Source: Hydrolagus colliei (lineage: Eukaryota). From it: 64,000 bases of DNA. Where the stretch lies: the NCBI GenBank assembly GCA_035084275.1, contig CM068742.1, positions 100,812,001 through 100,876,000 on the forward strand. The letters run 5' to 3'. Below, in pieces: positions 7,582 to 57,310 of this stretch; within the stretch, counting starts at the first letter, position 1; every line of letters starts with the position of its first letter. Under the pieces are notes generated by a model, which was not told where the DNA came from, made no database searches, and was given only the letters and a program-made list of their open reading frames with translations. The position numbers and the translations under genes were made by a program.

Positions 7582-7591
7582 CCTTTTACTC

Positions 7592-8656
7592 TTAATATGT
7601 TGGTAAAAAAACCTTAGGGTTCCCCTTAATCTTACTCGCTAATTGTTTTTCATGCGGTCTCTTTGCCCCTCTAACTTCCTTTTTTAGTTCTATCCTACAC
7701 TTCCTATATTCTGCTTTGTTCCCTTCTGAATTTTGAGCCTGACACTTATCATAAGCCTCTTTTTTTTGTTTTATTTTGGCCCCGATTTCCTTAGTCATCC
7801 AGGGAGGTTTGGATGCCTTACATTGCACCTTTGTGGGGATGCTTTTGACCTGTGCCTGAACTATCTCCTCTTTGAACGCTGCCCACTGCTCATTAGTTGT
7901 CTTACCTGCCAATTTTTCTTTCCAATCCACCTTGGCTAGGTCCCACCTCAACTCATTGAAATTAGCCCTTTTCCAGTTGAGTGTCCTCACCTGTGATCGT
8001 TCCTTATCCCTTTCCATAATTATTCTGAATCTAACGATATTGTGGTCACTATTCCCTAGATGCTCACCTACAGAAACCTGTTGAACTTGCCCTACCTCAT
8101 TTCCCAAAACTAGATCCAGCAATGCTTCTTTCCTCGTTGGACTGGAAACATACTGATCAAGAAAGTTGTCCTGCACACACTTCAGGAATTCTTCTCCCTC
8201 CTTGCCCTTTACTCTACTATTCTGCCAGTCTATGTTGGGATAGTTGAAGTCACCCATTATCACTACTCTATTAGTTCTGCATTTCTCCGTGATACGCTTG
8301 CAGATCTGCTTGTCTATCTCCTCCCCACTATTTGGTGGTCTATAGTATACCCCTAACAGTGTAACTGCACCTTTTTTATTCCTCATTTCTAACCAGATAG
8401 ATTCGGTTTTTAGTCCTTCTTCCACCTCGTTCCTTTCTAAGGCAGTCACTGAGTCCTTAACTAAAATTGCCACCCCGCCCCCTTTTCTCCCTTCTCTATC
8501 CCTCCTGAATACATTATAACCAGGAATGTTCAACTCCCATTCCTGCCCATGCTGGAGCCAAGTCTCTGTTACTGCTATAACATCATATCGCCTCGCAGCA
8601 ATCTGAGCCTGCAGCTCACCAATTTTATTTCTCAAACTTCGTGCATTTACATACAT
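7592..8656 (-). pseudogene. CR1 ORF2 N-terminal part: APE endonuclease domain
   Basis: Motifs YVNARSL, VTETWL, GGGVA, YRPPN, GDFNYP, LDLVL, SDHN; the frame breaks near 7605. Confidence 0.92.
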
Positions 8657-9924
8657 GCACTCTAAGGCACAAATTACTTCCTCTGCATTTTTCTCCCGTC
8701 TTACCTTTACCCCTGTCCTCTTTATTACCCCTCCCGTATTTGAACTACTGATCAGTTTCCCACCCTCACCCCCCGGGATTAGTTTAAAGCCCCCCCCACA
8801 AAACTCGACAACCTCCCTGCAAGGAGATTGGTTCCAGCCCTGTTCAGGTGTAACCCATCCATTTTGTACAGGTTCGTCATGACATTCACGGCCAGGAGAT
8901 CACATCATTTGTGGTGTTTGTAAAAATGGTGAGAAGCACCAATTATTACTTTAAAAAGCTGTCAAAATGGATTAATAAAGATTTACAAAGAATGTACAGC
9001 ATGGAAAGAGGTCTCTCAACCCAACCGGTCCATAACGGTGTTTATACTTCAGTCAGCGAGTTCCACAATCGTCTATCTCACTATCTCTATTTCTCACTAA
9101 CTCTGTTCCGCACTATCTCTGTTCCTCCTAAAATCTCTTTTAGATCTCTTTGTCGCTATCTTATATGCTATTTATGCTACAATTACATTGTCAAACGTAT
9201 AGAAAAATGTGAGGAGAGAAGGGACTAGAAGAGTATGAGAGCGAGGATGGCTATGAAGAGCTGACTTGCCAGGTTTTTTTTTCCTACTCTGGTGATTTTG
9301 AAAAGTCTTGACCACCCCCACGAACTCTCTGCCCCTCTCAGTTCCCACTACTCTGGCCCACTGAGAGGTTCAGATTAGCATCTCCCACACTCCAGAACAA
9401 TATTCCCAATTATTGCCTGCCATCCAAGTACTGCATGCAGCGGCACCAGGAATCTCCCCATAATTTTTTCAGAATCGATTGATCATCTTTTTTCCATTGG
9501 GAGAGTTAAAACGTGAGGAAGGAACCAACCTAAAGGGTCAATCTGTTTTTTTCTTGTTCCATACACTCCTAGATGAGCAGCCAGTGATAGCTTGTGCATG
9601 TGCACAGTTTGGAACACAATTCTATGTCCTTCCAACCAGATGGCTTTTGTAGATTGATCAATCAAAACAGCAATCATCTGCTACATTTCTGTGTGCAGAA
9701 CATTTTATTTGTTTAAAACCATTAATTTGCCGAGAGAGAGAAAGTATCTGCTTCTTGTGTTGTGTTTTGATGAAAATTAGGCAAAAGAAATCCACGGATT
9801 GTGCCGTTTGCCATCTTATGAATGAATAACAAACGGAATGAATTTGCTGTGCAAATCCTTACACCAAGTGGCACGAGAGCCCACATGTCTGAGGATAATC
9901 TGTATGCGGTTCATTAATCAATAC

Positions 9925-26404: not shown

Positions 26405-26677
26405 GTAATAATAAAAATCCTTGCATTTCATATAGCGCTTTTCACATCTGCTAGACATCTCAAAACGCTTCACAGAAAATACTGTAAAGTGAATTGACTA
26501 TATTTGTGAGCGAAACGCAGCAGCCAATTGCATACATCAGTGTCCCATCAGTGTTTTTTTGAGGGATTCTATTAGGCGTGTGGAATAAGGAAACTTGCCC
26601 CAGGTTTCGCCCTGCCAGAAATTGAGCCCAGGTCTCTCGCTTGTAAGGCAAGTGCTCTAACCACTGAGCTACAGGTA
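26405..26677 (-). mobile_element. Same tRNA-SINE family
   Basis: Reverse complement of the head (ctaaccactgagctacagg) and of the tail. Confidence 0.85.
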
Positions 26678-28220: not shown

Positions 28221-28535
28221 GGAGTTCCTGTAGCTCAGTGGTTAGAGCACTCGCCTTGCAAGCGTGAGACCTGTGTGTTCGAATCCAGGCAGATCAGGGC
28301 GGAACCTTGGGCAAGTTTCCTTACTCCACATGCCTAATAATAATCCGTCCAAAAAAACTCACAATAATAAAATTGGTCATTTCAATCCAAGGACTCTGCT
28401 GTGCACAATTGGATGCTGAGTTCCACAAATATACAGTCAATTCACTTTACAGTATATTCTGTGAAGTGCTTTGAGATGTCGATAAGATGTGAAAAGCGCT
28501 ATATCAAAATGCAACTATCGATATCATTATTATAT
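28221..28535 (+). mobile_element. Same tRNA-SINE family, full length
   Basis: ggagttcctgtagctcagtggttagagcactcgccttgcaagcg...gttcgaatcc...aaaagcgctatatcaaa. Confidence 0.88.
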
Positions 28536-31500: not shown

Positions 31501-32439
31501 AAGGAGCTATATAAATGTAATTTTAATTTTCTTGTTGATTCAGAATTAGAAGTGTTCCCTGGAATAATAAAGCCTGATTGAATATCTGCAGTCAGAACCT
31601 GTATTAGTGTATTCCTAGCCTGTATTCATATTTATATTCTGAGGTATAATGAAAATCTTGTATAAATAAGCCTTGAGATGTGCCTTGAAGGAGGCAAGGC
31701 GATGGGACTGTGGGATGGAGTTCCAAAGGGTGGGGTTAGAGATTCTGAAGGCTCAACCGCCAATGGTTGGGTGGGTTGGTGATGGTACGTGGAGTTGGCC
31801 AGAGCCTGCTAGGTGAAGGAGCGGACAGGTTGATTTGATGATAGCAGGTTACAGAAGTAGCAAAGATCAAGGCAGTGGAGAGCTTTGAAGGCTCGGATGT
31901 AGATTTTGAACGCTATTCTCTGAGGGATGGGGAGACAAGCGAGGGTAGCTCCACATCTCTAAAGTGGATTGACTGTATTTTGTGCGCAAAATATGGCAAC
32001 CAGCTATGCAGGTCAATGTCCCACAAACTGCCATGGAGTGAATCACCAATTTTATTTGAGAGATTATTGGTCAGGACTCCAAGAGATACTCCAATTTCTT
32101 TTCAAATAGTGCCATCGGATTTTTAACGTCCACCTGAACAGGGAGAAGGGACTTCACCACGTGTCCTTACTTGGTTAGCCAAGAAGCTTCCTGGGAAACA
32201 AGTGATCATTACTTGAGATAATGACATCGTCTTTTCTAATTATGCTAATTTGGATGCAAAAGGAGAAGATTCCAGCAATAGTTTGGGGAAACTATCACTC
32301 CCATCTCTCGGCCTTGTGAGAACACATCTCCCAATGTATTACAGTGATCATTTATCAAATGTTTGAACTCCCATGTTATTTTTTTGAATGGCAATTTGAC
32401 AGTAGCTTTTCTGTAATGCTTAAGTATACAAATAATTAT

Positions 32440-35400
32440 ACTACAAACTGGTACTCTGTACTGAGTGTGGATGAGAGTGTTGATATCTCAGGGGAGAGCA
32501 ATGCACAGCCTGTGGATACACAGGGGGCCATGCGGGGAAAAAATGTTCAAAGATAATTGTCATGGTTGATACAACTGTCCAAGGTATAAACAGGCATTTC
32601 TGTGACCGAAAACATGAATCTTGGATGGTATGTTGCCTCCCTGGTGCAAGGGTTGAAGATGTCACCGAACAGGTACATAAAATTCTAGAGGGGGAAGGGG
32701 AACATCCATGTAGGGACCCATGATATTGGGAGGAAGAGGCCTGAGATGCTCCAGGGAGAATATCAGAAGCTGGGGAAAATGCTGAAAACTGGAACTTCGA
32801 AGGTAGTGATCTCTGGATTACTCCCGGTGCTTCGAGCAAGTAAATTTCTAAACAGTAGGATGAGGCACATGAATGCTTGACTGGAGAAGTGGTGTAGAAA
32901 GGAGGGCTTCAGGTTCCTGGATCATTGGGATTAGTTCTGGGGCAGGTGGAACCTGTACACGATGGATGGGTTACACCTGAACAAGGCTGAGACCAATGTC
33001 CTTGCAGGGAGATTATCTAACGCTGTAGGGGGGGCGTTTCAACTAATTTTGAGGGGGGATGGGAATGCATACAGTAGTTCAGCTAGAGGAGGGGTAAGAT
33101 AGGGGACAAGGGGAGGGGTAGAACAGGAGAAAAGTATAGAACAAGCCAATTCTGTCTTGAAGTACATATATGTAAATGCACACAGTTTGACAAACAAAAT
33201 TGGTGAGCTGCAGGCTTAAATTGCTGCAAGGGGATATGATGTGGTAGCACTAACAGAGACCTGGCTCAAGGAAGGGCAAGAATGGGAACTGAACATTCCT
33301 GGCTATAATGTATTCAGGAGCGGTAGAGAAGGGAGAAAAGGAGTGGGGGTGGCAATATTAATTGAGGACTCGGTTACAGCCTTAAAAAGAATCGAGATGG
33401 AAGAAGGCCTGAAAACCGAATCTATTTGGTTGGAGTTGAGGAACAAAAAAGGAGCAGTTACACTGTTAGGGGTATACAGACCACCAAATAGCGGGAAAGG
33501 AGATAGACAAGCGGACCTGCAAGCAGATTTCAGAAAGATGCAGAGCTAATAGAGTAATGATGTTGGATAATTATCCCAATATCAACTGGCAGAACAGTAG
33601 TGTAAAGGGCAAGGAGGGAGAAGAATTCCTGACATATGTACAGGACAAATTTCTCGATCAATATTTCCAGTACAACAAGGAAGGAAGCAGTTCTGGATCT
33701 AGTTTTGGTGAATGAGGTGGGACAAGTAGAGCAGGTTTCTGTAGGTGAGCACCTAGGGAATAGTGTTCACAATATCATTAGGTTCAGTGTAATTATGGAA
33801 AAGGTGAAGACACTCAACTGGAAGAAGGCTAATTTCAGTGAGCTAAAGCGGGACCTAGCCAAGGTGACTGGAAAGAAAGATTGGCACGTAAAACGGTTAA
33901 CAAGCAGTGGGCAGTCTTCAAGGAAGAGATAATTCGGGCACAGGTTAGAAACATTCCAACAAAAGTAAAATGTAAGGCATCCAAACCTCCCTGGATGACT
34001 AGGGCAATTGGGCTGAAAATAAAGCCAAAAAAGGAGGCTTATGATAAGTGTCAGGCCCAGAATACAGAATTCAACCAATCAGAATATAGGAAGTGCAGGA
34101 GAAAACTAAAAAAGGAAGTTAGAGGGGCAAAAAGAATGCAGGAGAAACAATTAGCAGGTAACATTAAAGGGAATCCTAAGGAATTTTACAAACATATTAA
34201 GGGTAAAAGATTGGTCACGGGTAGGGTGGGGCCAATAAGGGACAAAGGAGGAAATCCTATTGTGGAGGCAGAGAGCATGGCGGATGTACTGAATGAGTAC
34301 TTTGCCTCTGTCTTCACAAGAGAAGAAGATGCAGCCAATATCACAGTATTGGAGGAAAGTGTAGTAGAAATGGATAAGATAAGCATAACCAGAGAGAAAG
34401 TACTAAAAAGGTTGACGGCGCTCAAGGTAGATAAGTCACCCGATCCGAATGGAATGCATCCTAGGTTACTAAGGGAAGTATGGGAGCAAATAGCAGAGAC
34501 TCTGGCCACAATCTTTCAATCTTCCTTGGACACAGGGGTGGTACCAGAGGACTGGAGGGTTGCTAATGTTACTCCCCTGTACAAAAAGGGGCAGAAGGAC
34601 AAACCTGGGAACTACAGGCCAGTCAGTCTAACGCCAGTAGTGGGCAAACTTCCAGAGTCTATAATCAGGGACAAGATAGATCTCCACTTAGAAAAATATA
34701 GGCTGATAAAGGACAGCAAGCGTGGATTTGTTAAAGGCAAATCTTGCCATCAATGATGTAACAGAATGGATGGACGAGGGCAGCACAGTTGATGTAGTTT
34801 ATATGGACTTTCAAAAGGCATTTGACAAACTGCCGCATGAGAGGCTTATTAGGAAAATAAAGGCCTATGGCCTTGACACGATGCCTTGATACTTTGCCCA
34901 TAAACTTTGGAAGTCAGTCTCCTACAATTCAAAAAAAAAACTACCACACTAAGACAGAATTTAAGTATTTTCCATAATTCTGAAAAAATTTTAGTTGGCA
35001 AATTTAAGTTAGGACAAATTCATCTATCAGACAGACACAAGGCGAAATGTAAGGTGTTGGGTGTTCCAGAATGCTTTAGTTTCCTGCTATTGTGTTGAAG
35101 CACCTGGATCACAAGACAATAGTAACCTGTTATACAGAGAGTAGAGGGTCAGGTAAGAAATCCTTATTTTGTGTATTGCTTTGCTTGCTTATTAGAGTAC
35201 CGAAATGCATCATTAATTACACTGCACGACAATAAGAATTGAACTAGGTCATTCTGAAGCAATTTACTGCGTATCTAAATATTTGTTAATATTGGAGAAA
35301 TAATGTTTTCTCTCACCTAAGCACTTTGTTGTCTTGCTCGCTAACTCAATGCATTGCCTGAAAAGGTGGTGGAGGCAGATTCCATAACAGCTTTTTAAAA

Positions 35401-35553
35401 GGGAACTAGATCTTTATTTAGGAAGAGCAGGTCTATTAGGTTATGGGGAGAAAGCTGGGCAGTGGGATTGAGTTGCTCTGTTCAAAGAGCCGGCACAGAC
35501 TAGATGGGCCGAATGGCCTCCTTTTGTGCCGTATAATTCTATGATTCTATGAA
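32440..35553 (+). mobile_element. Decayed chimeric CR1 LINE: partial ORF1, EN and first half of RT (to about 34871), ~475 bp non-CR1 insert, then CR1 3' end (35348-35553)
   Basis: ORF1-like MVCCLPGARVEDV and DGLHL; ORFs 33241, 33636 and 33881 are highly similar to the 5.8-8.9 kb copy; ends attctatgattctatg. Confidence 0.9.
34872..35553 (+). repeat. Left arm of a ~685-bp inverted duplication (partner 50085-50771)
   Basis: Reverse complement of 50085-50771 along its length; ORF 34907..35098(+) and ORF 50540..50749(-) translate almost identically. Confidence 0.95.
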
Positions 35554-37209
35554 ATTAAGTATAATTTGATCCTTCACATGGTCTTAATTGGGGGGGAAAT
35601 ATACATACTGTCAGAGGGAATTAGTTTCTTTCTTACAAGATTAGCCATCATACCTTTGAACGCTTGCCAGATTTTATAAATATGTTACATTATATGTTAA
35701 ATCCCAGGGATGTTTTTTGGGGGGAGAAGGAGCTAATTCTTACATTGATGCAGATATATATTCAGGGCTAAATTTGTTGGAAATCTTGGATCTTATGGTG
35801 CCTTTTGATGTCTGCTCCATTTTATCAAGGAAAACTATCTGGGAAACTGTGGTTAAATCGTGTTTTGAGAGAGAAGCACTTAAGCTTTTGCTTAAGACAT
35901 ACAAGTACACATAAGGGTACTAACATTACCAGATGGTTCCTGAGGCTTTTCTTTTATTCTCGTCTTGGCTTTTTCTGTATATTTAGTGGAAATTTTAGAT
36001 GCAGCATTGATGCTCAAGCATCTTAATGAATACTCTGCATAAAGCTATCCTTACCTGTTCAGCTGGTAGGACTTTGGATTACAAGGAACAGTGCTTAATT
36101 CTGCTGAAAGGGCTTCTTGGCAAAGCTGGCAAAATTGGCCGTTCAATTCATGACTGTTTACGGGAGGTTTCTCTCCCCAAATTGGCTGCCACACTCTACA
36201 ATACACAGGCAACACACTTTACAGAAAATCCTGTTTGGAAATATTTCAATGAAATATTTTTTTAAAATGTTGTCCTAACCTTCAACTGATAATGATGGTT
36301 GTGGAGATGATGGAAGGGGAGGCGGGGGGTGGGGTGGAGGGGAATGGGGGGAGAAAGGAGCGTGTAATGCCAGCGCCCTTGAGTGGTTTTCTTGATTCTG
36401 ACATATTCATTGCAGGCGTTTGTGGAATACATGCAATTGGTGGCTGCCAATTATCCAAGACATCAAAGTCAGCAGCACAGCACCAATTGTTGATTGATAC
36501 ATCTCAACAGTAGTTCCAAAAACCCAATTGAGGTCACCACTTGTTTTCGTTTAAATCCTATTTTAATTTTATTTTCAGAAAGCAAAGGGTCTGGAATTAG
36601 AGTATCATAAAATGAAGACGGCAACGGGACTAAAGAAAACTTGATTTAATTAAGGATCAGTTGGCTGGCTGTTCATTATTTTCTATCGGAATAACCTTTC
36701 CTTCTAAAGATCCTGTGATTTTGTTTCCCAATGACAACAACAGGAAAGAAAGGCAACAGATGGACTACAAAGTTCCCAGTTTGCAATGAATTGCTGAAGT
36801 CTTACTTACTCCTGAAGGGCTGTGCAAATTATAAGACGTGGGAAAGTTATTAAAAATACTGAAAAGTCAACTTTTTACAGAGTGCACATTACCAAGACAA
36901 TAGACTGAAGAACACTATGTTTCATAACAAATTTGATAATGATCAAATGAGTTATTGAAGCATCATGTTTTCAGCCTGTTGTTTTTATCAGAGGGTGAAG
37001 AGGTTAGTTTCTTAGTGACTTGTGTTCAGTTTGTTCACTCAGTCCAAGGTCTATGTGAGATTAGTGTGTTCAGAAATGGTCATCAGGTGATAGATGCATA
37101 TTGACCATGCTTTTGGTGAGTGCCATCCTAACCTTAAAACTGTATTTGGAATTTCTTGAAAGTATATAACAGAGGGATGTGCAGCAAATAGAAGGGGTAG
37201 GTATTAAAC

Positions 37210-38055
37210 AAGAAATGGTGCTATAGAAATTGATGGAACTTAAACAGTGCAAGATACCAGGGCCTGATGAATTGCTTCAGAGAATATTGAGAGAAGTCAG
37301 GGAGGGAATAATAGATGCTCTGACTGCAATCTTTTAAACATTTTTGGATACAAAAGTTGTGCCACTAAACTGACCTATGTTTAAAAAGAGAGGGACCAGA
37401 TGAATAATTATAGACCTCTCAGATGAACACCAATACTGGGCAAACTTTCAGAGACTTGGAAAGGCATGGATTGATTTGGACACAGATTTGTTAAAGGTAC
37501 GTATTGCTTAACAAATCTAATAGTTCTTTGCCAAAACTAGAGAATAGATAACGGTAATGCTGTGGATGCAGTATATATGAATTTTCAGAACCATGTGATA
37601 AGGCTTGAGATGCATCGTATTAATTGGGACATCTTCCCATCATGAAAAGCACTGTCCAATTGTAATTTTGTATTGTGTTTTGTATTAATGGGAGGAAGCA
37701 GCATGGATTAAAGTTAGTGAAAGGAGATGGAGGGTGGAAAGAAAGGGTGGTTATTTACTGTGGGGTTAGTGGTGTCCCCTGGGGGTAAGAGTTAGGAGTA
37801 CAGTTTTTCGCCATTTTTATAATTGATCTGGATTCCAAAACATAGTAGTCATAAATGTATTGCCCTGAAGGGAGTGGTGGTTGAGGCAGAATCCATATTA
37901 ACTTTCAAGAGGAAACAAAATAAATATTTAAAAAGGAGTCAGCTATAGTGGGATGCAGAAAGGGCAAATAAATGGGCCTAAATGTATTTCTCTTAATGGA
38001 GCTATCCAAAGCACGATGGCTGAATGGCCTTCTATGCTGTAAACTTCCATGATGC
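37210..38055 (+). mobile_element. Heavily degraded CR1 RT and 3' end remnants
   Basis: Residual similarity to CR1 RT (ccagggcctgatg, gatttgttaaagg, ggatgcagtatatatgaattttcagaa) and the 3' end gctgaatggcct. Confidence 0.65.
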
Positions 38056-39325
38056 TTTCGTTAAAACAAAATCTCAATTTTCAGAAAGGTGGGCAAATTT
38101 GTCAAAAAACAGGTAAAAGGTTTAATTGTGTATTCTAGTGTCTACATCACTCACGTAGATGTGCATCTGATTTTTCTTGCATGTAGACTTTATAGTTGGA
38201 AAGCCTTATGAATTCAAACAGTATAACAGCAAATGAAAAATTGTATTGGATTTCACATTGAAAGTCTGCTGTGTTAAAACTAGTTGCAACATATGTCTTA
38301 CTAAACTTCAAGAACTTCAAAAGAATAGCTTGAAAAACCTTAAAGGGTGTATGTTGTGTCCAAAGTCACTGTCATTCACTTGATTGGTGTTTGTACAGAA
38401 ATTGGCTATTGGCTGCTGCGTTCGTCTACAAAAATTTATGGGGAATCCTGTGAAACAGTTTGAGGTGTGCTTCTGATGTGAAAGGATGCAAAAGGTGCAT
38501 CGTGTTGTACACTATGTGTTCTTCCGAGTTAAATCTCATAAAATCTGTAGCTTTATCATCTTTGAATTTACAAAGACAAGAAGTAGTGAGTGGGACTGAA
38601 CCTGCAGCATGTTAGAACTTTGCACCCACTCCAAAACCACATTAATCAGAACAGTCAACTCAAAATATCTGTTGAGAAAAAAAATCTACAAATCGTTGAT
38701 CTATTTTCCAAAGAAAGTAACTTTTTTATTTTAAAATATAATTTCCCAGTCATACATTTATACATTTCACTAGGTCACACAGATCAAGAGGTTACAGGTT
38801 GAACCTTGATCTGTGCTGAGCGAGCTGATCTCAGTCCCAGGTCCTCAGTGTTCTGGATTAGGGAGGAGACAATCATTTAAAGTTCCTGCTCTTGTTTGCT
38901 ATCCAGAGCATCTGGTGCAAAATGAGCATCAAGTGAGGACTGGGTCGGTATGAGGTTCTCTAGTTGAGTAACCTGCCAAGTGCCAACACTCACTCATTTT
39001 CAAAGCTGAAACATAGCACTTGGCCAAAGTACTGAAGCATGTCTGGCACTGTAGAATCATATTGCATAAAATAACATACAAACAGGAGTCTGAAAACTTC
39101 AGGAAAGTTGGGGATGCAAGAAACTGGACTAGAGTAAAATAAATATAACCTCTGCAGTTCTTTTCCAAGTTTATGGTTTAAATTTAGTTGTATAAGCTAA
39201 TCAACGAATCACTGAATGAAACATGATCAGAGTATTTGAACTGCACTGCTTTGATTGCAAAGTTACTCGCTCCTATCCGTTCTTTGATGGGAATTTGCAC
39301 TGAGGTTTTGTTCTTTTTCTTTCAG

Positions 39326-39405
39326 GCTCAAAAATCATGGATAGAGAGAGTGTTCTACAAGCGGGAATGCGTTCATATAATACCAAGCTCCAAAGACCCT
39401 CATAG
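39326..39405 (+). CDS. TRPM3: TRPM3 coding exon ([27 protein letters not shown]), 80 nt, phase 0 to 2
   Basis: Acceptor ttctttttctttcag|GCT and donor AG|gtaatg. Hand translation closely matches the first common TRPM3 exon (human [27 protein letters not shown], from memory). Not in the ORF track. Confidence 0.95.
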
Positions 39406-39513
39406 GTAATGATTTATGTTGTAGTACTGTATAATGAAAACAAAGTTCCGCACTGAATGAAAATGTACAGTCCACTCGCTTCATTCCTCACAATCTGGTA
39501 CATAAATTTGCTT

Positions 39514-39613
39514 CAGCCTGGTTCAGTCATGTGTCAGCCTGGCACAGAAATGCATAGGCCTGGGACAGTAATGTGTCAACCTGGCACCATAATGCGTCAG
39601 CCTGGCTCAGTTG
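39514..39613 (+). repeat. 21-bp tandem repeat, four units plus the SINE head
   Basis: cagcctggttcagtcatgtgt / cagcctggcacagaaatgcat / aggcctgggacagtaatgtgt / caacctggcaccataatgcgt / cagcctggctcagttg. Confidence 0.85.
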
Positions 39614-39800
39614 GTAGCACTTTCAATTCTGAGTTAGAAAGTTGGAAATGCAAGCCCCATTTCGAAACATGGAACTCATCAAGTCTATCCTGACACTCCA
39701 ATGCAGGGCTTGGGGTGTGCTGTTTTGTCAGAAATCCCATCTGCCATCCAAGTGGACATTAAAGATCCCATGGTACTATTTGAAATGAGAATAATGTTCT
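39595..39800 (+). mobile_element. Older tRNA-derived DeuSINE-like (SacSINE1-like) 5' part
   Basis: gtcagcctggctcagttggtagcact...ctgagttagaa...gtggacattaaagatcccatgg; related pieces near 19500-20170, 23770-24070(-), 42800-43080(-) and 57540-57650. Confidence 0.6.
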
Positions 39801-40249
39801 TCAGAACAGTTTCCTGTTGGATGAATGGATAAATGCGTTGTGGTGTCCCAGTTTGATCACAGGCCTGACTTGACTGAGATATACCATGGATTCCTGCTCA
39901 TGATCAATATCCAGGAAAGCCCCTCCCCCTGAATTGTACAGATGTTTTTTTCCGAAATTTATTAATTTCATAGAAACTGAAATTAATAAATTTCCAAAAT
40001 TCTGCACAATCTTACATTTTCAGATTGTGGTCTTAATGGCAGGATACCAAGAGTAATTTTAGGATAAAGATCAACATTTTTCAACCTAACGATCGAATCA
40101 TAATATTTGCACTGACTTTTTTTTGTGGTGCGATGTGATCTGGAAAAACTTAACAGTCCCTGTTGCCGTGGGATAAAATCTAGTGAATCTTTTGGCTTGT
40201 TTGGCACCAAGGTAAATTCAAGAGACCCCTTTTTTTGTTCCCATGGTAG

Positions 40250-40454
40250 GTGCTGCTGTGGGCGGCTAATAGGGCAACATGTTGGACTGCCTCCAGCCAT
40301 CTCCATCAGTCAGAATTACAGCATTGAAGGCAGAATCACAAAGAATGATCTCCATTCAGAGAAGTGGTCCATTGCCAAGCACACGCAGCTCAGCCCCACA
40401 GATGCCTTTGGGACCATCGAATTCCAAGGAGGAGGACACTCTAACAAAGCTCTG
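40250..40454 (+). CDS. TRPM3: TRPM3 coding exon ([15 protein letters not shown]...[32 protein letters not shown]), 205 nt, phase 2 to 0
   Basis: Lies within ORF 40125..40520; tag|G acceptor and CTG|gtaatg donor; CCCGR and [12 protein letters not shown] are TRPM N-terminal motifs. Confidence 0.96.
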
Positions 40455-40614
40455 GTAATGAAAGCTCTCTCGGAGGGGGTGGAGGGGAGTTTAAATGCTT
40501 TAAACACTGCAAGACATTAATTATTCAATGTAAAATGCGGAAATGTCAAGCGTTATTGTTGGTTTGATTGCTAATGACCATTTGGGAGTCAAACCTTCAA
40601 CAAATAGTTAACAT

Positions 40615-40872
40615 AGAATCCTGTAGCATTGTGGTTAGAGCACTTGTCCTTTGATTCTCGAGCAGGGCAAAACCTGCTCTGGGGTAATAATCCCTTAAAA
40701 TATATGTATATAATTATTCCACAACTGTTTGTGGGACATTACTGTGCTCAATTGGCTGCCATGTTTCACCCACAAAATATAAAGTCAATTCACTTTTACA
40801 GTATAATCTGTGAAGCATTTTGAGACACCTCAATGAAGTGATAAGGTGCTACATCAAATGCAAGGATTATTA
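40615..40872 (+). mobile_element. tRNA-SINE copy with internal deletions
   Basis: cctgtagcattgtggttagagcac head, Deu-like body, caaatgcaaggattatt tail. Confidence 0.78.
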
Positions 40873-41985
40873 GAATTATTTAAAATACAATATATATGTT
40901 GACCATGTTTAGATTGTCAACTGACAGGATTAATACCACAGACATTCACTGTTATGGCTGTGATGGTTGCTGAAGTTCTGTAATAAGGCTCAAGGAATCT
41001 TCCCACAATTCGTTCCCAAATTGTAATTCCGTTCATCATTCATGTGGTATAATGTGTGAGATTCACACAATAAAAAAAAATACTGCGGGGCTCACACTTG
41101 CCTGAAGACAACCCACTGGAGTTTCTCTCGTGCTCCCAACTACTGGCAGCCTTCAACTTCAGGGCAAATCTCTTGGCATCCCTGATATTTGAGACACATC
41201 CAAGTGTCCACAGGATTCACATGCAATCAATCCTTCTTTATTTTTATGTTGAATACCAGTGTGGGTTTACTGTCTACATTTGCTTATTTGCTAGATTATA
41301 ATTATTTTCACAGTTAAAATATTTAATATTCTTAAGAAGCAACGTAGAAGAGAGGACCTTATAGATATACTGTTAATTGCACTGTTATACTATAAACCAG
41401 AACAACACTTGAGGAATGCAACACAGTAGGGAAAAAAAAGGACAACAGTTCACAATTGTGACTCGCTTAATAAACAGCTTGAAGATGATACTTGTATTGG
41501 AAGATGTAGACCAAATGGACTAAAGGGCCTTCTTCAATTATACCCCTCTAATGTAATGATATTTGTGGGTTGAGATCTATCAGTTAATACCAGGCTGCAT
41601 TACCACAATACACAAGTGCTATTTGTCAAGACTGGTTCACTTAGTTCTTACATTTGGATCAGTTTTTGTGCTTCTCACAGCGGGGAAGTGCTGGGAATAT
41701 ATGACAATTCCACTGTCAACATCAAGCACCCCCAGGTCAGGTAGACCACATCTCCAAAACAGAGTAAAGTCACATTTTCAGACTAGGTTGATTTATTAAC
41801 TGTGAAGTTTTATTTGTAGGCGCCAGTACTTTTCACCTACTGACAAATAGTATCTTGTTCAAATTATACGGTTTAGAAATTTTCCAATCCTTTTATTATT
41901 TTTCCTATTATTATTTCCATAGCGTTGGAGAAACACAGTTTGCCTCTAGCATGTAATATTCTTCAACTGTCTTTTTCTTTCCTAG

Positions 41986-42700
<715 letters not shown>

Positions 42701-43596
42701 CATGGATGGCACTACATGTTGCCAAAGTCCTAAAGTGCTTCACCACAAGGGTAGTGGATGTTTTTTTAAAAAAGCAAAGGCAGCACATAGCTAAGTTCCA
42801 CAAACAAACATGAAACAAATTTTTCTGGAGGGTTTTCTGTTCAAGGAGATCAGCAGAAACTTTTTTGGATATTTGAAAGTGATGGGCTCTTGAAAGCCAT
42901 CTAAAGGACAGCTAGATGAGCCGTTGTTTTATTGTGTCATCCAGAGGATGTCATCTGTAACAATGTTCTGGACTGGGATGTCTATCAAGAGTTTGTCCTC
43001 AAGACATGACATGGTATTCGAGCATACAACCAGAGGCAAGAGAGCCACCAACTGAGCCAAGCTGACATCCTTAGAGAATAGAGTCATACAAATACCCTGT
43101 GACATGCATTGGTCTACAGGTGAAAAACATGACTTGATGTGATAATTCCAATCTTGAAAACCTGCTGCTACATGAGCCTTCTCACTTTCCACCCCCTCTC
43201 TCCCTCACACCCATGCACACACACAGTTGGGTCTGAAGCTAGGTTCAGTTATTGGATGAGTTACCGCTCGCTGCATTTGAGTTTTGAGTACCACTTCATG
43301 GCAATATGAGCATAACTCCAATACCTTCCCCAGTCCCATTAGCGAGCCAGGCAGTCTACTCAGCCATCAAGAGTGTGCTCAAGTACTGTGACCCTGCCTG
43401 GCTGTGGTGTTGGTTCACTGAGCTCACTACAAAGATTTCGATTTGTCTCTGCTCCCGTTCCTAGACTTCCAATAAGACCGACAGAATTGGGGTCACAGCA
43501 GTTCCCTCCAGCTCTCTGCAAGCTATCATGCTCCAGACTCTGCCAGAGTTGTAATTGAATAGCCATGTGAGTTATGTTCAATGGGTTGCCTTTCAG

Positions 43597-43721
43597 GTGT
43601 AATTCGACATGTAGGAGATGCGTTGAAGGACCATGCATCAAAATCCCGAGGGAGGATATGCACAATAGGTATTGCTCCGTGGGGAATAGTAGAAAATCAA
43701 GAGGATCTAATTGGGAAGGAC
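43597..43721 (+). CDS. TRPM3: TRPM3 coding exon ([42 protein letters not shown]), 125 nt, phase 1 to 0
   Basis: Acceptor cctttcag|GT and donor GAC|gtgagt; hand translation gives the conserved TIGIAPWG motif. Confidence 0.96.
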
Positions 43722-44446
43722 GTGAGTACATCTTGTATGTTTTAGTGGATCAATAGAATACTATTAAAATCAGAAAATTTAATTTACTGACATCAAAGTT
43801 CACCCAGCTATAGGCCAGACACCTAACAAACTGCCTCTGTTGAGGGGCCACTTGTTTATAAGGATCGTTTAAAGTTAGTGTGGAAGCAGGATATTCAGGT
43901 TCACTCGATGGGGTAGGTGACATTTACTAAGAACAACTGAGAATCCCTAAGAGGAAATCCTATTGATAACCAAAAATATGTCACGACTTCCCCCCCCCCG
44001 CTCTAAAGCAGTCAATAAACCATGAATTACTTACCACTGACAAGGTTCTTGAATTGCTTTTGGTGACCCTAATGACAATATGGGCTATCTCACTCTTGAC
44101 AATAAATAATAATAATCCTTGCATTTGATATAGCGCCTTATCGCATCTTCTAAACGTCTCAAAGCAATTCACAGAAAATAATGTAAAGTGAATTGACTGT
44201 ATATTTTGTGGGCGAAATGTGGCAGCCAATTGCACACAACAGTGTCCCACAAACAGTGGGGGATTGAAATTACCAATTCAACATTTTTTTTTAGGGATTA
44301 TTATGATCTCTCTTCTTCCCCCTCCCCGGCCACCCCACCAACGTTAAACTAAAGCATTTCAGAGTTCCGGCTATGGATCTAGGTCACTGAGTGAGTCACC
44401 TTAAGACTGACGGTGTCTCAATAGTATTGAACTTCTCTTCCTACAG

Positions 44447-44618
44447 GTGGTCCGGCCATACCAAACCATGTCGAACCCCCTGAGCAAGCTGACAGTTCTA
44501 AACAGCATGCACTCCCACTTCATCCTTGCTGACAACGGCACAACAGGAAAGTACGGAGCTGAGGTCAAGTTACGGCGGCAGCTGGAGAAGCACATCTCCC
44601 TGCAGAAGATTAATACCA
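44447..44618 (+). CDS. TRPM3: TRPM3 coding exon ([57 protein letters not shown]), 172 nt, phase 0 to 1
   Basis: ORF 44447..44674; acceptor ctcttcctacag|GTG and donor A|gtgagt; [10 protein letters not shown] motif. Confidence 0.97.
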
Positions 44619-44910
44619 GTGAGTACTTTGCACTCAATGTGGGCAGGATGTCAGGCAGCTCTTGGAATCACTGACAAAGCCTCCTTCCTTCACTGCCCAT
44701 AACAGGTGCCTTTAGTCGTGTACCGCCAACTGAGACTGATTTATTTTTATTAAAAGGCACTGAATAACTTGGTGGATGTAAAAAGAAAACTTGCACGCAT
44801 TTTTTTCTAGAGGATTCTAATCCTACATTTTTGATTATCAGAGTTTCAAGTTTGCATGTAGGAAATGTAATACTTTGACTTGGCAATTGATCATTTGAAG
44901 TAGGCTACGT

Positions 44911-45261
44911 GGAGTCCTATAGCTTAGTGGTTAGAGGACCTGGCTTTGATTCCTGGGCAGGTTGAAACCTTGGACAAATTTACTTACTCCACGGGTCTTT
45001 GTTTACCTAGCAGTAAGTAGAAACCCTGTTGTTAGCCGATTGGCGAATCACTTTTCTGGGCATAGTAATCCATTAAGAAAATAATAATAGTTTGGTTACT
45101 CAATCTGCGACTGTTTGTGGGACAATATTGTGTGCAATTCAATGCTGCATTTGCCCGCAAAAACTACAGTCAATTCATTTTTCAATATATTCTGTGAAAA
45201 GCCTTGAGACATCTCGAAGACATGATAAGGCACTATAACAAATCCAAGGATTATTATTATT
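44911..45261 (+). mobile_element. tRNA-SINE, long variant
   Basis: Same head, body and tail plus an extra tttacctagcagtaagtag segment. Confidence 0.8.
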
Positions 45262-46942
45262 TGATCATTTTGTTATCACCTTGGGTCCAGATCAAACCAT
45301 TCAAACATAAGCATTACAGTACCGAAGGAGGTTATTTGGCACATCAACTTATGCTGCGTTCCTCCACTGGAACTAACTACAATTCCATGCTCCTTCCCGA
45401 GTGTAACCTTTGCCCACCAAGACCAATTGTTGCTGTGGTTGGAACCAGCCAATTCAACACAGAGCAGGGACTAGGGATACCCATGTTGTTCACGGTGAAT
45501 CCTCACACCCTTGGGATGTCCTCCTGACGTGAAAGGTGCTATACAAGTGTAATTTTTTTGTTTTGGAGCCAGGACTGGGTTGGCTGATTCACAGCACACA
45601 AAACAAATCACAGTCCATGATCACTTTCTCTTCACCTCAGTATCAGATTCATCTCCACCTCTTCCCATTTGGGTAGCTGGTATATAGGTGCTTTGAAGAT
45701 CACAAGCTTTGTTGTGTGTTATTCAAAATAAAAGCTGTATTTGTAACAGTGGATTGTTTAAGTAATAAACGGGCAGAATGCTGCAGTAATATGGTTTTTG
45801 CCTACAAACCACACAGTCAGACCATTTTGAGAGACATTGTGTGAAGCATTGTCTGAGACATCCTTTGGGCATTGTATCAAAGGCATTACATCAAACATAA
45901 GGATTCTTATTACATTCTTCGTGTGCCTGGAATATTTAGTATCCTTTGCAACCACAACAAAATTACATTTGTACAGCATCTTTCACACCGGAGGACATCC
46001 CAACGTGCTAGACACAGTATTTAGTTACAAATGCAATCACATGACATTATTGCTGTTGACCATTACATACATTCCAACCATCTGTAGAGTAGATTTAAGG
46101 TATTCCAGGGTGAGCAAAGGAAGGGGTGGGTTGAGTGAGGAGGGGAGGGGAGGGAGGGAGGGAGGGAGGGAGAAATTTATGGACAGAGGAGAATACATAT
46201 TTTCTCCCTCATTTGGCAGAAAAGAACTACGAAAAGAATGGTAAAAACCACTGCTTAAAAATACAGTTTGAGAACTGCATTAAAATCAAAACTCAAAATG
46301 ACATTCAGAAAGACAGGAGGTAGCGAGTGCTCGGAGATGGGGCTGAATGACAACTATTGACCACTGCAGGTGGTTCAGTGTGAATGGTGCATTTATGTCT
46401 TTGTCCCCCTGGAACTCCATCAGTCCTTTTGTATCGGAGGAGGGTAGAGGTAGGATGGTGACCAAAGACACGGTAAAGAGGAAGATCTTGAGATGGGCCT
46501 TGAAGTAAGAGGAAGCAAGGGGATTTGGGGGTGGTCTCAAGATCTTTCTCTTCAACCAGTTTTTGATCACCCTCCTACCTCCACCTTCTCCGTGTCTATA
46601 CCTCTTGATCCTAGCCACTCACTCAGGTGCGCATCCTTGACTGTCCAGGACTTTAGGACATCCCCCTAAAAGGCACTATACAAATTAATTGTTGTTCTAG
46701 AATGCTCCATCGCCAACACTATTAGTATGTCCCAATTGCATCAATCTTCACTTGAAGGAATTGTTCTCTTTGTCTCTCTGCATTGTTTCTGCTTGTATTG
46801 ATTTAGCTTTAAGCAGTTGTTGGATTTCTAAAACGTAGAATGTGTTGAAGAATCTCCAGTTAAATAGTCGAGGCATTCTTCAACACTTTCCATGTTGAAG
46901 AATCTCAATACTTTTACATTTTCTTATTCAGAAATGTAGCAA

Positions 46943-47350
46943 GTAATAATAATAATAATCCTTACATTTGGTCTCACGCCTTATCAGATCTTCGAGACAT
47001 CTCAAAGCAATTCACAGAATATACTGCAAAGTGAATTGACTGTATATTTTGTGGGCAAAATGCAGCAGCTAATTGCACACAACAACAACAACAAAATTAC
47101 ATTTGTAAAGTACAGCAGTGTCCCACACACAGTCTGCATTGGGTAACCAATTTTATTTATTTTTTGAATGAATTATTACCCCTGGAAAAGCGATCCGCTG
47201 ATCGACTAATAACCAGGTTCCAATTTACTATCGAGTAAAGAGAGGCATTTGGAGTAAGGAAATTTGGCTAACGTTTTGCCCTACCGGGAATTGAACCAAG
47301 GTCTCTCTCTTGCAATGCAACTGCTCTAACCACCGAGCTACAGGACTCTC
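46943..47350 (-). mobile_element. tRNA-SINE, long variant, containing a short L2 (CAA)n tail insert at about 47080-47110
   Basis: Reverse-complement head ctctaaccaccgagctacaggactc; tail aataataatccttacatttg. Confidence 0.8.
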
Positions 47351-49762
47351 AAGTAATACTGCAAATTAGACCCAGCCTGGTCTTTAGTCATCAGGCCGTG
47401 GCATTAATATACAGTGGTTGATTAGTTGGCATTGTGAGCAAGCTGATTATGACCGTCATCTGCAATGAGACTGACCCCTGTCTGTTCCTTTCACAGATTA
47501 AACAGAGCCCAGTGAAAAGACAGCAGCACAGAGTAAAGCACCCACACTGGACACTGGCACCAGTGCATTGAGCAGTTCCAACAAGCAGTACATTTAGAGG
47601 GGGGAAAGCACAGGGTGGGGATACGCACTCAGGTCATGAGAAGAATCAGTGACACTGAAAAGCACCCAGTGAATGTGAGAGAAGCTCCGAGTCATATCTC
47701 ACTGGAAGATAGCAGGGGTCACGTGAGAAGTATATCATTCAGAGTCCTGGGGCTACCTCAGGAATACCTAAGGAAGCAGCTGCAGCAACCCATGGCGTCC
47801 AGTCTGTGATATTTGTTGTGTTAATTGGGGCTTTAATTGCAGTTTGCAGATGTCGGAAGACGTTTGATTTGCACAATACACAAACGGTGAATTGCAATTC
47901 CCCAAAGACATCAATCAATGGAAAAAGTCTCCAGGGCAGGGCAGATGATGTGGCAATGATGTCAGAGTAGTGTCTTATCAGTGAGGGTAGTGTCTTAGCA
48001 CTGTCTCTTATGTTGAAGTTTTGAGGCCTGAGATCAAGGCTTCAAATAATGATCGGTTTCCACTTCTCAAAGTAAAGGACAATGACAATATGACAATCGC
48101 AACAACTAATATTTATCTGGTGCCCTCCACATGAGGCAGTGTCTCAGAACATTGATCAATGGTGCAGTTTGACCTTAATTGTCTCCTAAAACAGGATGCA
48201 GGCAAGCTTGATCCAGTCCTCGCACAAATTCCACACACATTCACCTCGTGTACGTCGCCTCTGCTTGTTATCTAAGAGTGTAGTTGCTTTGTAGGCAATA
48301 GCTTCTAAGCTCTCAACAAATTCATGTACCCAGGTGTTCACATTGTGTGAACAGCCACCTTCTGATGCAAAGTGTAATCATTATAACATGACAAAGGGTT
48401 ATGTGAGAGAGCTCTGACTGTCAAGTAGGTGCAGTCAATCATACCTTGTACTTTGGGGGAAGAATTTGAACAAAATACTGATGCCAGGGCAGGTGCTGCC
48501 ACCGGCTGTTGTCCAGCATGATACACCTGGACTCCGGCCAAATGCAGTGTCTGTAACATGTCACATTATGCTTCAAATAGATACCAGGTACACAACAGAA
48601 ATGTGTCATGGCTGTTGTGGACTATCACAGCCACACAAATAGCTTTGTAAAAATGTTTGATCTTTTCTCCAAAACACAAAACAGTCATTGCTTCCTTGAA
48701 TCTCCAGAGCCCTTCCACGTCCTCCCGATCTTCCTTCTCGCCTCACATCCTGAGGTTCACTAGCTGAGCTGGATAGTCAACATGTGCCGAGTTTCCTAAA
48801 AGAAGCGCCCTTCTCAGGCGAACCTGAAAATCATTCTAATCTGTCGGACTTTCAAAATTTCTCTATTTTGCATTTCTTGGTGTTTAAACTTAACCAACCT
48901 GTGCATTCCCTCTGATCTGTAGACACTGTCTTGCTCCACATTCCCCACCCTGTCGGTACTCTAATAAACACTATCAGTGAGTGGTCAGGCCTTCAGACAT
49001 TCTACCCTCACCTTCTGGAACTCTCCTCCGCATCACCCACTTAGTTGCCTGCTTCAAGCTCTGTCTCAACATCTTCCTTTTTGACTGCACCTTCGGTCAT
49101 CTTTCCTCCTCCATCCCACCCCCCACCCCCACCTTCCACCCTTCTCTGATTGCAACCTGCAGTAGGGTTCCAAGTCCCTCATTGTCTAGTGCCTCGGGAT
49201 GTCCTCCTGGTGTGAAAGGCGCTATATAATTGTAATTTAGTGTTGTTGTTTAAGCCATTAGTTGCTGCCATGTGATCAGCTCCAAAGCTGTTGAAGTGGC
49301 TCACAGCAGATGTACAGGGATGCTTCCACTGTGCGCTCGCTGCTGTGGCTGCTGCTCTCTTGGCTTCAAAACACTGCAAAGGAGGAGTACGGCTGAAAAG
49401 TACGATGCAACAGCAGAGGGAAGAGAAATGCAGCAATTTGTGTGATTATTATCACAACGCAAAACAAACATCATCCCACGGAAAATTCCACCCGCTTGAT
49501 ACCTGCCCTCTCCAACCTCTACCACTCTCCCCACCGATAAACTATGTTACAAAAAGATTGGGCACAAAACCAATTGTGGCCGCACTTTGACCTGGAAACC
49601 ACAGCATTTGAGTAACAGTTCCTGAGCTTAACTATCTTGTTTGTAGAGTTAAGCCATATCCTGCCTCTTCAAAATGTAACAGTTCCACTATTGCTCTATT
49701 AACTCGCGTCTGAGGTAGATGCGAGAAAGCTCTACACAGTTGAGCTGCAACCATCCATATGA

Positions 49763-49853
49763 GTGACCAGTGGGCTTCCCTTTGTCATCCTATGCCTGAG
49801 ATTATATGAAGGGGGCTGGGAAGGCAAAGGGATGTTCAACTGTCATCAGTGGC
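49763..49853 (+). ncRNA. MIR204: miR-204 precursor hairpin (5p 49776-49797, 3p about 49815-49835), intronic in TRPM3
   Basis: Contains TTCCCTTTGTCATCCTATGCCT (mature miR-204-5p), loop gagattatatgaagggg and 3p arm GCTGGGAAGGCAAAGGGATGT. It lies in the intron between the ...KINT and RIGQG exons, the known host position. Confidence 0.97.
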
Positions 49854-50084
49854 ATCGCTTGATCATTCTTCTATTATTAACTGCATCATTGACTGAAGTG
49901 ATGGCTCGTGCCTGGTTTGCCTTTTTACAAGCAATGTTGACTGCATTGTGAATTGTGTCCCCCACTCTCCATTCACACAAAGGGCCATTCAATGGAACCA
50001 ATATGTTGTGGCCAGATAACCAATTGACCTACTTTCAGACGTTGAACAAGCTGGTTTGTCTCCCTCTCTTTTATGTAACCAAGG

Positions 50085-50290
50085 TTCGTAGAATCATAGA
50101 ATTATACGGCACGAAAGAAGGCCATTCGGCCCATCTAGTCTGTGCTGGCTCTTTGAACAGAGCAACTCAATCCCACTGCCCAGCTTTCTCCCCATAACCT
50201 AATAGACCTGCTCTTCCTAAATAAAGATCTAGTTCCCTTTTAAAAAGCTGTTATGGAATCTGCCTCCACCACCTTTTCAGGCAATGCATT
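50085..50290 (-). mobile_element. Short CR1 3' end
   Basis: gtagaatcatagaat tail followed by ggccattcggcccatc, matching the CR1 3' end at 5789-5990. Confidence 0.9.
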
Positions 50291-50771
50291 GAGTTAGCGA
50301 GCAAGACAACAAAGTGCTTAGGTGAGAGAAAACATTATTTCTCCAACATTAGCAAATATTTAGATACGCACTAAATTGCTTCAGAATGACCTAGTTCAAT
50401 TCTTATTGTCGTGCAGTGTAATTAATGATGCATTTCGGTACTCTAATAAGCAAGCAAAGCAATACACAAAATAAGGATTTCTTACCTGACCCTCTACTCT
50501 CTGTATAACAGGTTACTATTGTCTTGTGATCCAGGTGCTTTAACGCAAAAGCAGGAAACTAAAGCATTCTGGAACACCCAACACCTTACATTTCACCTTG
50601 TCTCTGTCTGATAGATGAATTTGTCCTAACGTAAATTTGCCAACTAACATTTTTTCAGAGTTATGGAAAATACTTAAATTCTGTCTTAATGTGGAGGCTG
50701 ATAGTTTTTTTTGAATTGTAGGAAACTGACTTCCAAAGTTTGTGGGCAAAGTATCAAGGCATCATGTCAAG
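50085..50771 (-). repeat. Right arm of the ~685-bp inverted duplication (partner 34872-35553)
   Basis: Direct comparison by eye, e.g. gagttagcgagcaagacaacaaagtgcttagg here vs cctaagcactttgttgtcttgctcgctaactc in the left arm. Confidence 0.95.
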
Positions 50772-51451
50772 CAAGATTATTCATTTTGTAGGATTAAAGG
50801 GATGTTGAATCTTTCACCAGCTTTGCACTTTTCAAGGTTGTTTCAGGGAAGAAAAAACACTGTCTCTCTTACATGCGTTTACACAATAAGTAACTCGTGA
50901 ATATTCTTTGTTTAAAAAGTGTATATACTTTATATACTCTGGAAACAAAAATGTCGCCATCCCTCACTTTGTGCATCAATGGTGCTTTATTTCAAGTAGA
51001 AATTATTTCTCTACTCATGAACAACAATGCTAAAACTATCATATGACAATATATATCATATCAAGAAGAATAGACTTGAACACATTTTAGACATTCTTCT
51101 TAACACAAGAAGTTGCATTGAATGTCTCTGTTAGCCCAAGAATTGACGCAGTAGTATTTGCAAATTGCTCAACAAAATCCACAGCCAATTATTCCGTCCT
51201 TGGATAAGGCAAATGTTTATCTGATCAGTTAATTTCCCATGTCACTATTCGAAAAGAGAAGGGAGTTTCTTTTGGTGTCCTGGCCAACAATCCCCCAGAT
51301 GAAATGGGTCATTCACTTCATTGCTATTTATTGGACATTGGTTGCTGTATTTGCCTATCCAATAAATAGTCACTTCAATTTACAGTAAATTCTGTGAAGC
51401 ATTTTTAGATGTCCTCTCGACGTGAAAGGCACCATATCAAATGTAAATCAT

Positions 51452-51796
51452 GGAGTCCTGTGGCTTATTAGTTAGAGCACTCACCTCACAGGTTTGATTC
51501 CAAAAAATGCACTTATCTAGCACCCTCCACGCAGGGTAGGGTCTCAGAGCGCTTAAACCTTAGCCAAGTTTTCTTACTCCTCTTTACCTAGCAGTAGGTA
51601 GGAATCCGGTTGTCAGTAAATTGTCGGATCGCTTTCCTGGGGTGATAATCTCTGTAAAACAAAATGGTCACTCAATCTACGAATGTTTGAGGGACACTGC
51701 TGTGCACAATTGACTGTTACATTTTGTCCACAAAATACAGTGTATTCTGGTGAAGTGCTTTCAGACATTTCAAAGATGTGATTAGGCACTATATCA
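51452..51796 (+). mobile_element. tRNA-SINE, long variant
   Basis: ggagtcctgtggc...gttagagcactc head; tttacctagcagtagg segment; caaatgcaaggattattatt tail. Confidence 0.78.
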
Positions 51797-52552
51797 AATG
51801 CAAGGATTATTATTATCCTATAAAGTGTCTCCTGTCTAGTTTAGGAACGGCACTGTGAATTATTAGACTGTTAGAGAAGTAGTTGTCTGGCAGTAATGAA
51901 ACCTTCACTTTTATTGTGCTAATTTTTTCCTCCAGCATTGATGATCTGACAGCTGGTTCAATGTAAGTGACCACCTGATGAATGAAAAGCTATATCTGGC
52001 AGCTTTTCACTGACAAAACTCACAATAAGCTACCTTATCTCCCTCTTTTTGCCCATCTTACACCCCACACATCCATGAAGTATTGCTCCCTCTTGGTATT
52101 TCTGAGATAGCAATATTTAAAACCGACACAGCTGAAATAAAACATAAGTCAGGATTTATTACTTTATTTATAAAATTCAAGCTCAGTTTCCTGTAAGCTT
52201 TGCCAACAAGTCTGAGTGCACTGCAGATATGCGTGCAGTTTATAGCAGGTATACACCCAGTGTACATTATATTCTGTCTGTACGTGTGTCCGCTGCTAAT
52301 ACAATGAGGTACCTCTCTGAGACCTCAAATCATTTAAAAACACTGCTAATCTTTTCTGTTACTCATGTGGAATTCTTGTTGTCAGCGTTCAAAATGGCTG
52401 GGAATAAACAATGAAATTCTCAAAGTCTCCCTGACTGGATTCCAGTTCATTTTGTTTGTCGGTTCCATTTCTACTACTCTCCTTACCCAGAACACTTCCT
52501 CGGCACACCTCATCCTGCTACGAAATCTCTGTGGCCTTCCCCTGAGATGTTT

Positions 52553-53042
52553 TATAATCATAATATAGTTGCATTTGATGTAGCGCTTTTCATGTCTTCT
52601 AGATGTCTCAAAGCTCTTCACAGAATATCCTGTAAATAATATTAATATAAAGAAACAACTGTTTGTGGGACACTGCTGTGTGCAATTGGCTGCTGCATTT
52701 CGCCCACATATATACTGTCAATTCACTTTAACGTATATTTTGTGAAGCACTTTGAGATTTCTAGAAGACGTGACAAACATTATAGCAAATACAAGGATTA
52801 TTATTATTATTATTAAAGTGAATTGACCCATATTTGTGGGTGAAACGTGACTGCCATTTGCACACAGGAGTGTCCCACAAGCAGTCAAGGATTGGTTGTC
52901 AATTTATTGGGGGTTTTACTTAAGGGATTTTTATCAGACATGTGGAGTAAGGGAACTTGCCCATGGTTTTGCCCTGCCAGGAATAGAACCCAGGTCTTTT
53001 GCTTGCGAGGCAAGTGCTCTAACCACTGAGTTACAGGACTCC
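52553..53042 (-). mobile_element. Minus-strand tRNA-SINE with a plus-strand SINE 3' half (about 52655-52813) nested inside
   Basis: The minus copy breaks at cagaatatcctgtaaa and resumes at taaagtgaattgac (52813). Confidence 0.8.

Positions 53043-57070: not shown

Positions 57071-57310
<240 letters not shown>

Follow-up and report, generated by a model that had tools for sequence, protein, structure and literature searches.

How did two long stretches of nearly the same sequence, one the reverse complement of the other, come to lie in introns of a single gene, on either side of five exons and a microRNA? The gene is TRPM3 of Hydrolagus colliei, and the window, the whole stretch of DNA that was analysed, is 64,000 nucleotides (nts) of assembly GCA_035084275.1 (contig CM068742.1, positions 100,812,001 to 100,876,000, forward strand). 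An earlier reader's note on this DNA, the original prediction, described the two arms as near-identical reverse complements, and so they are: the left arm at 34872–35553 aligns with the right arm, read from 50771 to 50085, at 96.07% identity over 687 columns (self-BLAST, E=0), and the pair is the longest among the 165 ungapped inverted pairs within the window. Global alignment gives 22 substitutions and one 5-nt gap; 3 of the 22 belong to a single indel in an A-run, and without them there are 19 substitutions (2.8%), of which 14 are transitions. It had also been claimed that some 475 bp of each arm is not CR1 sequence and has no other copy in the window. This segment proves to be 476 nts long in the left arm, its one match in the window is 50771–50291, and the remaining window matches are all of 29 nts or less with E values of at least 0.025, the level of noise. 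The arms are made up as follows.

34872–35347, plus strand: unique part of the left arm, 476 nts, an inverted copy of 50291–50771
35348–35553, plus strand: CR1 3′ tail of the left arm, 206 nts, apparently chimeric
50085–50290, minus strand: 5′-truncated CR1 tail of the right arm, 206 nts, the putative homology primer and donor
50291–50771, minus strand: native intron flank of the right arm, 481 nts, on the 5′ side of the tail, the putative donor of the 476 nts

The event behind the pair is most likely a young, lineage-restricted templated duplication primed by a long interspersed nuclear element (LINE), a known kind of repair scar. It is probable, if well short of certain, that the left arm arose through repair of a break in a CR1 already resident there, by inverted copying of a CR1 tail together with the 476-nt flank of that tail. 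The arm's place inside a CR1, which the earlier reader had missed, explains why the pair exists. The host element, together with a second CR1 in the window that serves as its reference, is given here (ORF, open reading frame; RT, reverse transcriptase).

32420–32428, plus strand: target-site duplication, 5′ copy (TTAAGTATA, 9 bp), the same word as at 35555–35563
about 32429–34871, plus strand: body of a CR1-type LINE, 5′-truncated and decayed, with an esterase ORF1 and an ORF2 comprising endonuclease and RT as far as mid-RT
35555–35563, plus strand: target-site duplication, 3′ copy (TTAAGTATA), beginning one base past the end of the tail
5787–8875, minus strand: reference CR1 ORF2 copy, nearly intact, with stop-free frames of 435 and 589 amino acids (RVT_1, E=1e-35)

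Relatives of the ORF1 of the left body bear Lipase_GDSL_2 (48 matches in a HMMER search with one ORF1 piece); a word-index protein search with another ORF1 piece gave 0 matches among 10 candidates. The same body matches Pfam Exo_endo_phos and, below the cut-off, positions 5–98 of the 205 in the RVT_1 profile. Its ORF1 likeness to one relative, P0005, starts at about 32432, with none further upstream, and this start, taken with the occurrence of TTAAGTATA at both ends, means that the composite as a whole lies within a single target-site duplication. Of about 3000 window positions taken at random, 0.17% gave a match as long as the TTAAGTATA pair. The host element has the features of a CR1-type LINE, namely esterase ORF1, endonuclease-RT ORF2, a short tandem 3′ tail and a target-site duplication; the name CR1 itself was the earlier reader's label and agrees with the features of that family. 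In the reference copy one frameshift separates the 435- and 589-amino-acid frames. The left body matches reference stretch 6901–8875, inverted, at 82.7% over 1979 nts, and the next 909 nts of the reference (5992–6900) are replaced in the left element by the 476 nts, after which the 206-nt tail resumes.

The right and left tails are 98.1% identical, and the left tail matches that of the reference copy (5787–5991) at 91.3%. Over the tail stretch 35348–35490 there are 0 differences between left and right in 143 nts, each being 16 differences from the reference, and in the last 63 nts of the tail the left differs from the right at 4 positions and from the reference at 2, with 4 between right and reference. 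All 4 tail differences are then within the last 63 of 206 nts (p=0.008, the boundary having been picked afterwards), and the left tail is apparently chimeric, donor-type for 143 nts and thereafter its own. Around the right tail there is no clear target-site duplication, the longest shared word being 4 nts.

A break in the 3′ half of the left CR1 would have begun the process. The tail-bearing end would then have invaded its nearest homologue, which is the 206-nt tail lying inverted 14.5 kb downstream, and synthesis would have passed the truncation point of the donor into 476 nts of unique intron until, with homology exhausted, end joining linked the new strand to the reverse-transcriptase region. 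One breakpoint does lie inside homology (the tail) and the other lacks it, and the marks of one-sided invasion are there: copying past the homology, a donor that is kept and, in comparison with the reference, a loss of 909 nts from the recipient. That the donor is just 15 kb off favours, we infer, DNA-level copying over random retrotransposition. In a mammalian reporter, homologous recombination that terminates where the second end is without homology is completed by end joining, as reported in the available part of Hartlerode et al. (2016, PMC5104497), and according to the accessible text of a review (PMC7407515) a D-loop usually comes apart once several hundred nucleotides have been synthesised, and invasion at ectopic sites is brought about by repeats.

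Is the pair real, and how many copies of the unique part are there? The contigs of 12 sequencing runs, each of which matches part of 41900–51800 (in the best of them the contigs total about 1,000 million letters), bear on this: 4 of the 12 were aligned on 34500–36500, and what follows is drawn from the matches listed. Run X5 comes from a different sample of the source organism (organism A) and run X6 from a relative, organism B. A 238-nt contig of X5 (34836–35073) spans the left junction, with 36 nts on the LINE side and 0 differences, and its depth of 55.5 is like that of the unique flank (53–55); the fit of a 700-nt contig with right-arm letters begins at 34872. The left junction, being present letter for letter in an independent sample, is not the assembly artefact that the original prediction had to allow for. 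The other doubt was that the segment might be a high-copy dispersed repeat. Stretch 35103–35303 is in a single X5 contig at a depth of 99.4, where the flanks are at about 55 and CR1 bins at 1e5–4e6, and a depth of about twice that of the flank means that it is no such repeat. For two copies with popped bubbles, 93–103 is predicted. Summed depth is no copy number, as contigs merge close copies, and the count is therefore approximate, the 476-nt unique part being present, it would seem, in about two genomic copies. Gene conversion in the X5 individual, which a contig (35044–35375) with right-type letters only could have indicated, was considered and rejected: the 99.4 fits 93–103 better than the 110–120 predicted for identical copies.

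At 34902–35035 there are 3–4 short contigs at raised depth in both X5 and X6 (summed, 364–521 versus 55), so a small fragment of this part may be shared with a few other loci. A search of metagenome contigs with the exact 24-nt flank pattern found 0 stretches. The extra short contigs are what speaks for a dispersed composite element of which the arms would be two independent insertions. That reading, or one of faulty assembly, is largely refuted and can be held very improbable: the depth over 35103–35303 fits two copies, and against an artefact there is, besides the independently sampled junction, the divergence of the arms at 19 sites.

Which arm is the copy, and how old is it? At 34905–34930 of the left arm the only contig of organism B has right-type letters; it fits from exactly 34872, beyond 69 letters that do not resemble the left LINE. 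Another contig of organism B (925 nts) fits only 35568–35792, following 670 unlike letters. Contigs show presence better than absence, and no evidence was drawn from places without cover (organism B at 35093–35347 and, for the left junctions, runs X7 and X12 with about 4x); X7 and X12 have one right-like contig each, at low depth. The contigs, then, say that organism B has the right locus and, as it appears, is without the left arm. The right-type copy with its non-CR1 flank is present in organisms A and B, and so the donor is intact. Outside the A-run, five arm differences could be typed from the outgroup rows listed, four of them left-derived (34949, 35036, 35093 and 35097) and one right-derived (35089). 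The divergence of the copied tract is 15/619 (2.4%, interval 1.4–4.0) and that of the flank between A and B is 12/480 (2.5%, interval 1.3–4.3), from which the copy appears to be young, its age being about that of the split between organism A and organism B, the nearest relative seen. A further observation at this place is that the 14 nts of 35554–35567 are unmatched by the organism B contig and contain the target-site word and an 8-nt word of the tail end.

Several points weigh against break repair in a resident CR1, or bear on it. The junction at 34871/34872 is blunt, with 0 shared bases and no filler (a later mutation could hide one base of microhomology); in the part of PMC5104497 that deals with cloned breakpoints, microhomology or added bases were present in all 9 junctions, which makes them typical, not required, and none of the 9 was a blunt join. 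That the LINE body is older than the arm is not established: it does look the more decayed of the two, with 3 stops over 675 codons (d=3.7%, interval 0.8–10.8%) and, against the reference, 11 gaps, some of them the reference's own, where the left arm has one indel, but the intervals overlap and the difference is not significant. (Dating the body by its codon position 2 mismatches, 8–10%, was rejected, as this mixes in differences between master elements.) No allele with an intact CR1 3′ half at the left locus is among the contigs listed, and here too the age intervals overlap. That the divergence of the arms equals that of the A–B flank allows only a short time and speaks for a single event, and if the organism B site is the empty pre-insertion site, insertion and repair both postdate the A–B split. 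Arm differences also crowd distally, with 12/239 in 34872–35110 and 3/380 in 35111–35490 (p=0.002), and a simple repair model leaves the substitution excess of the distal 239 nts without explanation; it could be due to error-prone late synthesis or to later gene conversion.

A single event of the kind to which some of these points lead would be a hybrid insertion in one step, CR1 cDNA capturing the neighbouring flank during target-primed reverse transcription. The cDNA would leave the LINE RNA for the neighbouring tail (DNA or antisense RNA), continue into 476 nts of flank and return to CR1 in the RT region, to give one insertion with one target-site duplication. There is indeed a single duplication around the whole composite, the last 63 nts of the tail are consensus-like, the junction is blunt, the age of the arm is about that of the A–B split, and the organism B contig is without a CR1 tail at 35568, as an empty site would give. 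L1 cDNA reportedly recombines with resident copies, a result ascribed to Gilbert et al. in 2005. Chimeric LINE insertions formed by template switching, such as U6-L1 chimeras, likewise have foreign sequence inside one target-site duplication, but here that sequence is internal, derives from the 5′ flank of a copy 15 kb off and stands in place of LINE sequence. The one-step route remains doubtful, for it needs two switches, the second of them without homology and skipping 909 nts, and decay seems further advanced in the CR1 body than in the arm, though not significantly. Rather improbable is template switching in replication (FoSTeS, fork stalling and template switching, or MMBIR, microhomology-mediated break-induced replication) or a later deletion, to either of which the CR1 tail homology would be incidental. 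A local inverted copy of less than a kilobase is typical of such switching as described in the accessible text of PMC4888836, and 35554–35567, unmatched in organism B and with an 8-nt word of the tail, is like templated filler. Yet 34871/34872 is without microhomology, the 9-bp word that stands at the 5′ end of the element recurs one base from the end of the tail, and the last 63 nts of the tail are not donor-type. A duplication at inversion breakpoints (staggered breaks) was rejected: the inner exons share one strand with those at 57135 and about 58135, and their order is kept. No inversion between the arms is evident in this assembly.

Break repair off the inverted tail, still the reading to be preferred, has counterparts in known systems. 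As far as the available text of PMC5104497 goes, recombination closed by end joining shares with it the homology-primed end, the copying past homology and the end-joined closure; here, a germline scar read from sequence, the donor is inverted, non-allelic and 15 kb off and the junction is blunt. Repeat-mediated non-allelic recombination, in the portion of PMC7407515 that was available, is alike in its transposon homology and in the duplication of a short piece from a nearby donor. In contrast, there is one homologous breakpoint here, exon order is kept, and the element is a CR1 and not Alu or L1. Among top-ranked open-access titles there was none on this locus or on CR1-primed local inverted copies. 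If this is how the left arm arose, the scar shows how abundant LINE tails can make backward copies of unique intron DNA across some 15 kb, and the donor, the recipient, the boundary of the tract and the piece deleted can all be read from it.

What does the pair do, if anything, in the TRPM3 transcript? The exons and the microRNA that concern this question are the following.

39326–39405, plus strand: TRPM3 exon, 80 nts, AG/GT ends, open frame
40250–40454, plus strand: TRPM3 exon, 205 nts, AG/GT ends
41986–42199, plus strand: TRPM3 exon, 214 nts, AG/GT ends; Pfam LSDAT_euk (E=6e-34), best PDB matches TRPM3 (E=2.5e-42)
43597–43721, plus strand: TRPM3 exon, 125 nts, AG/GT ends
44447–44618, plus strand: TRPM3 exon, 172 nts, AG/GT ends
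49761–49850, plus strand: miR-204 precursor, Rfam RF00646, 93.8 bits
57135–57309, plus strand: next TRPM3 exon, into which the five inner exons read in frame

The geometry of the original prediction stands: the arms are in one TRPM3 pre-mRNA and bracket both the exon block, whose five exons and total of 796 nts are borne out by AG/GT ends and frame, and miR-204, from which the right arm is 235 nts away (about 230 bp had been given). Since 796 is not a multiple of three, skipping of the block would shift the frame. Upstream of the left arm, no exon was found within the window. There is no sign that the TRPM3 protein is changed, or the miR-204 hairpin, which is a local hairpin in both minimum free energy and centroid structures and is outside the arm.

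It had been proposed that the stem drives formation of a 796-nt circular RNA (circRNA; junction of 44618 to 39326), adenosine-to-inosine (A-to-I) editing of the arms, or altered output of miR-204. Arms flanking an exon block in the same transcript do have the geometry of circRNA-forming pairs, and pairs across flanking introns promote back-splicing, stronger pairing winning and within-intron pairs competing (PMC11263572). Among the 49 inverted pairs that join the upstream and miR-204 introns this one is the strongest (1118 bits, the next having 150), and a duplex of the arms is predicted at −1207 kcal/mol. Such a function is nevertheless unlikely. The arms are 3773 and 5467 nts from the splice sites, the loop is of 14,531 nts with four internal introns, the left arm was not seen in the organism B contigs, and the miR-204 hairpin folds by itself outside the arm. 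Among the 14 transitions there is no bias towards keeping pairing (8 G.U versus 6 A.C, p=0.79, a comparison of low power). Mouse has circTrpm3 species, going by the accessible text of PMC10719524, and there they form without such a duplication. An editing-like skew between the arms was not seen either (T/C 6, C/T 5, G/A 2, A/G 1).

Young repeats dominate the pairs flanking circRNAs, most of these pairs decay neutrally and most circles look like by-products, in so far as the available text of PMC8516420 covers them. The complementary pair in TRPM3 pre-mRNA is probably also a by-product, and near neutral, though a low-level back-spliced product from it is possible. With the inverted Alu pairs of circRNA genes (PMC11263572, PMC8516420, the points of likeness being from partial texts) it shares intronic complementarity around exons, youth and a link to transposons; here, by contrast, 70% of the arm is unique, which leaves it one partner, and the pairing is long, about 97% matched and far from splice sites. 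That a LINE-primed accident should have made a single-partner 685-bp stem that drives circTRPM3 or is edited in its arms, and that is lacking in the sister organism, is rather unlikely. If it were true that there is an RNA circle or editing here but not in the relative, the locus would be a ready test of circRNA birth, with organism B as its control. More generally, the origin proposed would be a route to long intronic inverted pairs that are mostly unique, and surveys of circRNA flanks that mask repeats would miss them.

Some further features touch on the same transcript. The reference copy at 5787–8875 is inverted to the left body and constitutes a second long complementary pair, this one within the upstream intron, and its tail could compete for the tail of the left arm (−350 versus −404 kcal/mol). 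Were exons 39326–44618 to form a circle, the frame would stay open for 26 codons beyond the back-splice junction, and translation from an ATG at position 334 of the circle would yield 180 residues. In the intron between the left arm and the first of the five exons, 37150–38050 (plus strand) has to the eye the look of an old, much decayed LINE remnant, the tail of which weakly matches the left tail at 37876–37930.

Elsewhere in the window, 1564–1761 is a palindrome with 94-nt arms that are 95% complementary and a 10-nt spacer, presumably like the end of a repeat that is common in cartilaginous fishes. The heads of repeated elements at 5338–5410, 26611–26675, 28224–28293 and 52969–53040 give tRNA-like Rfam matches, and these four are likely tRNA-derived short interspersed nuclear elements.

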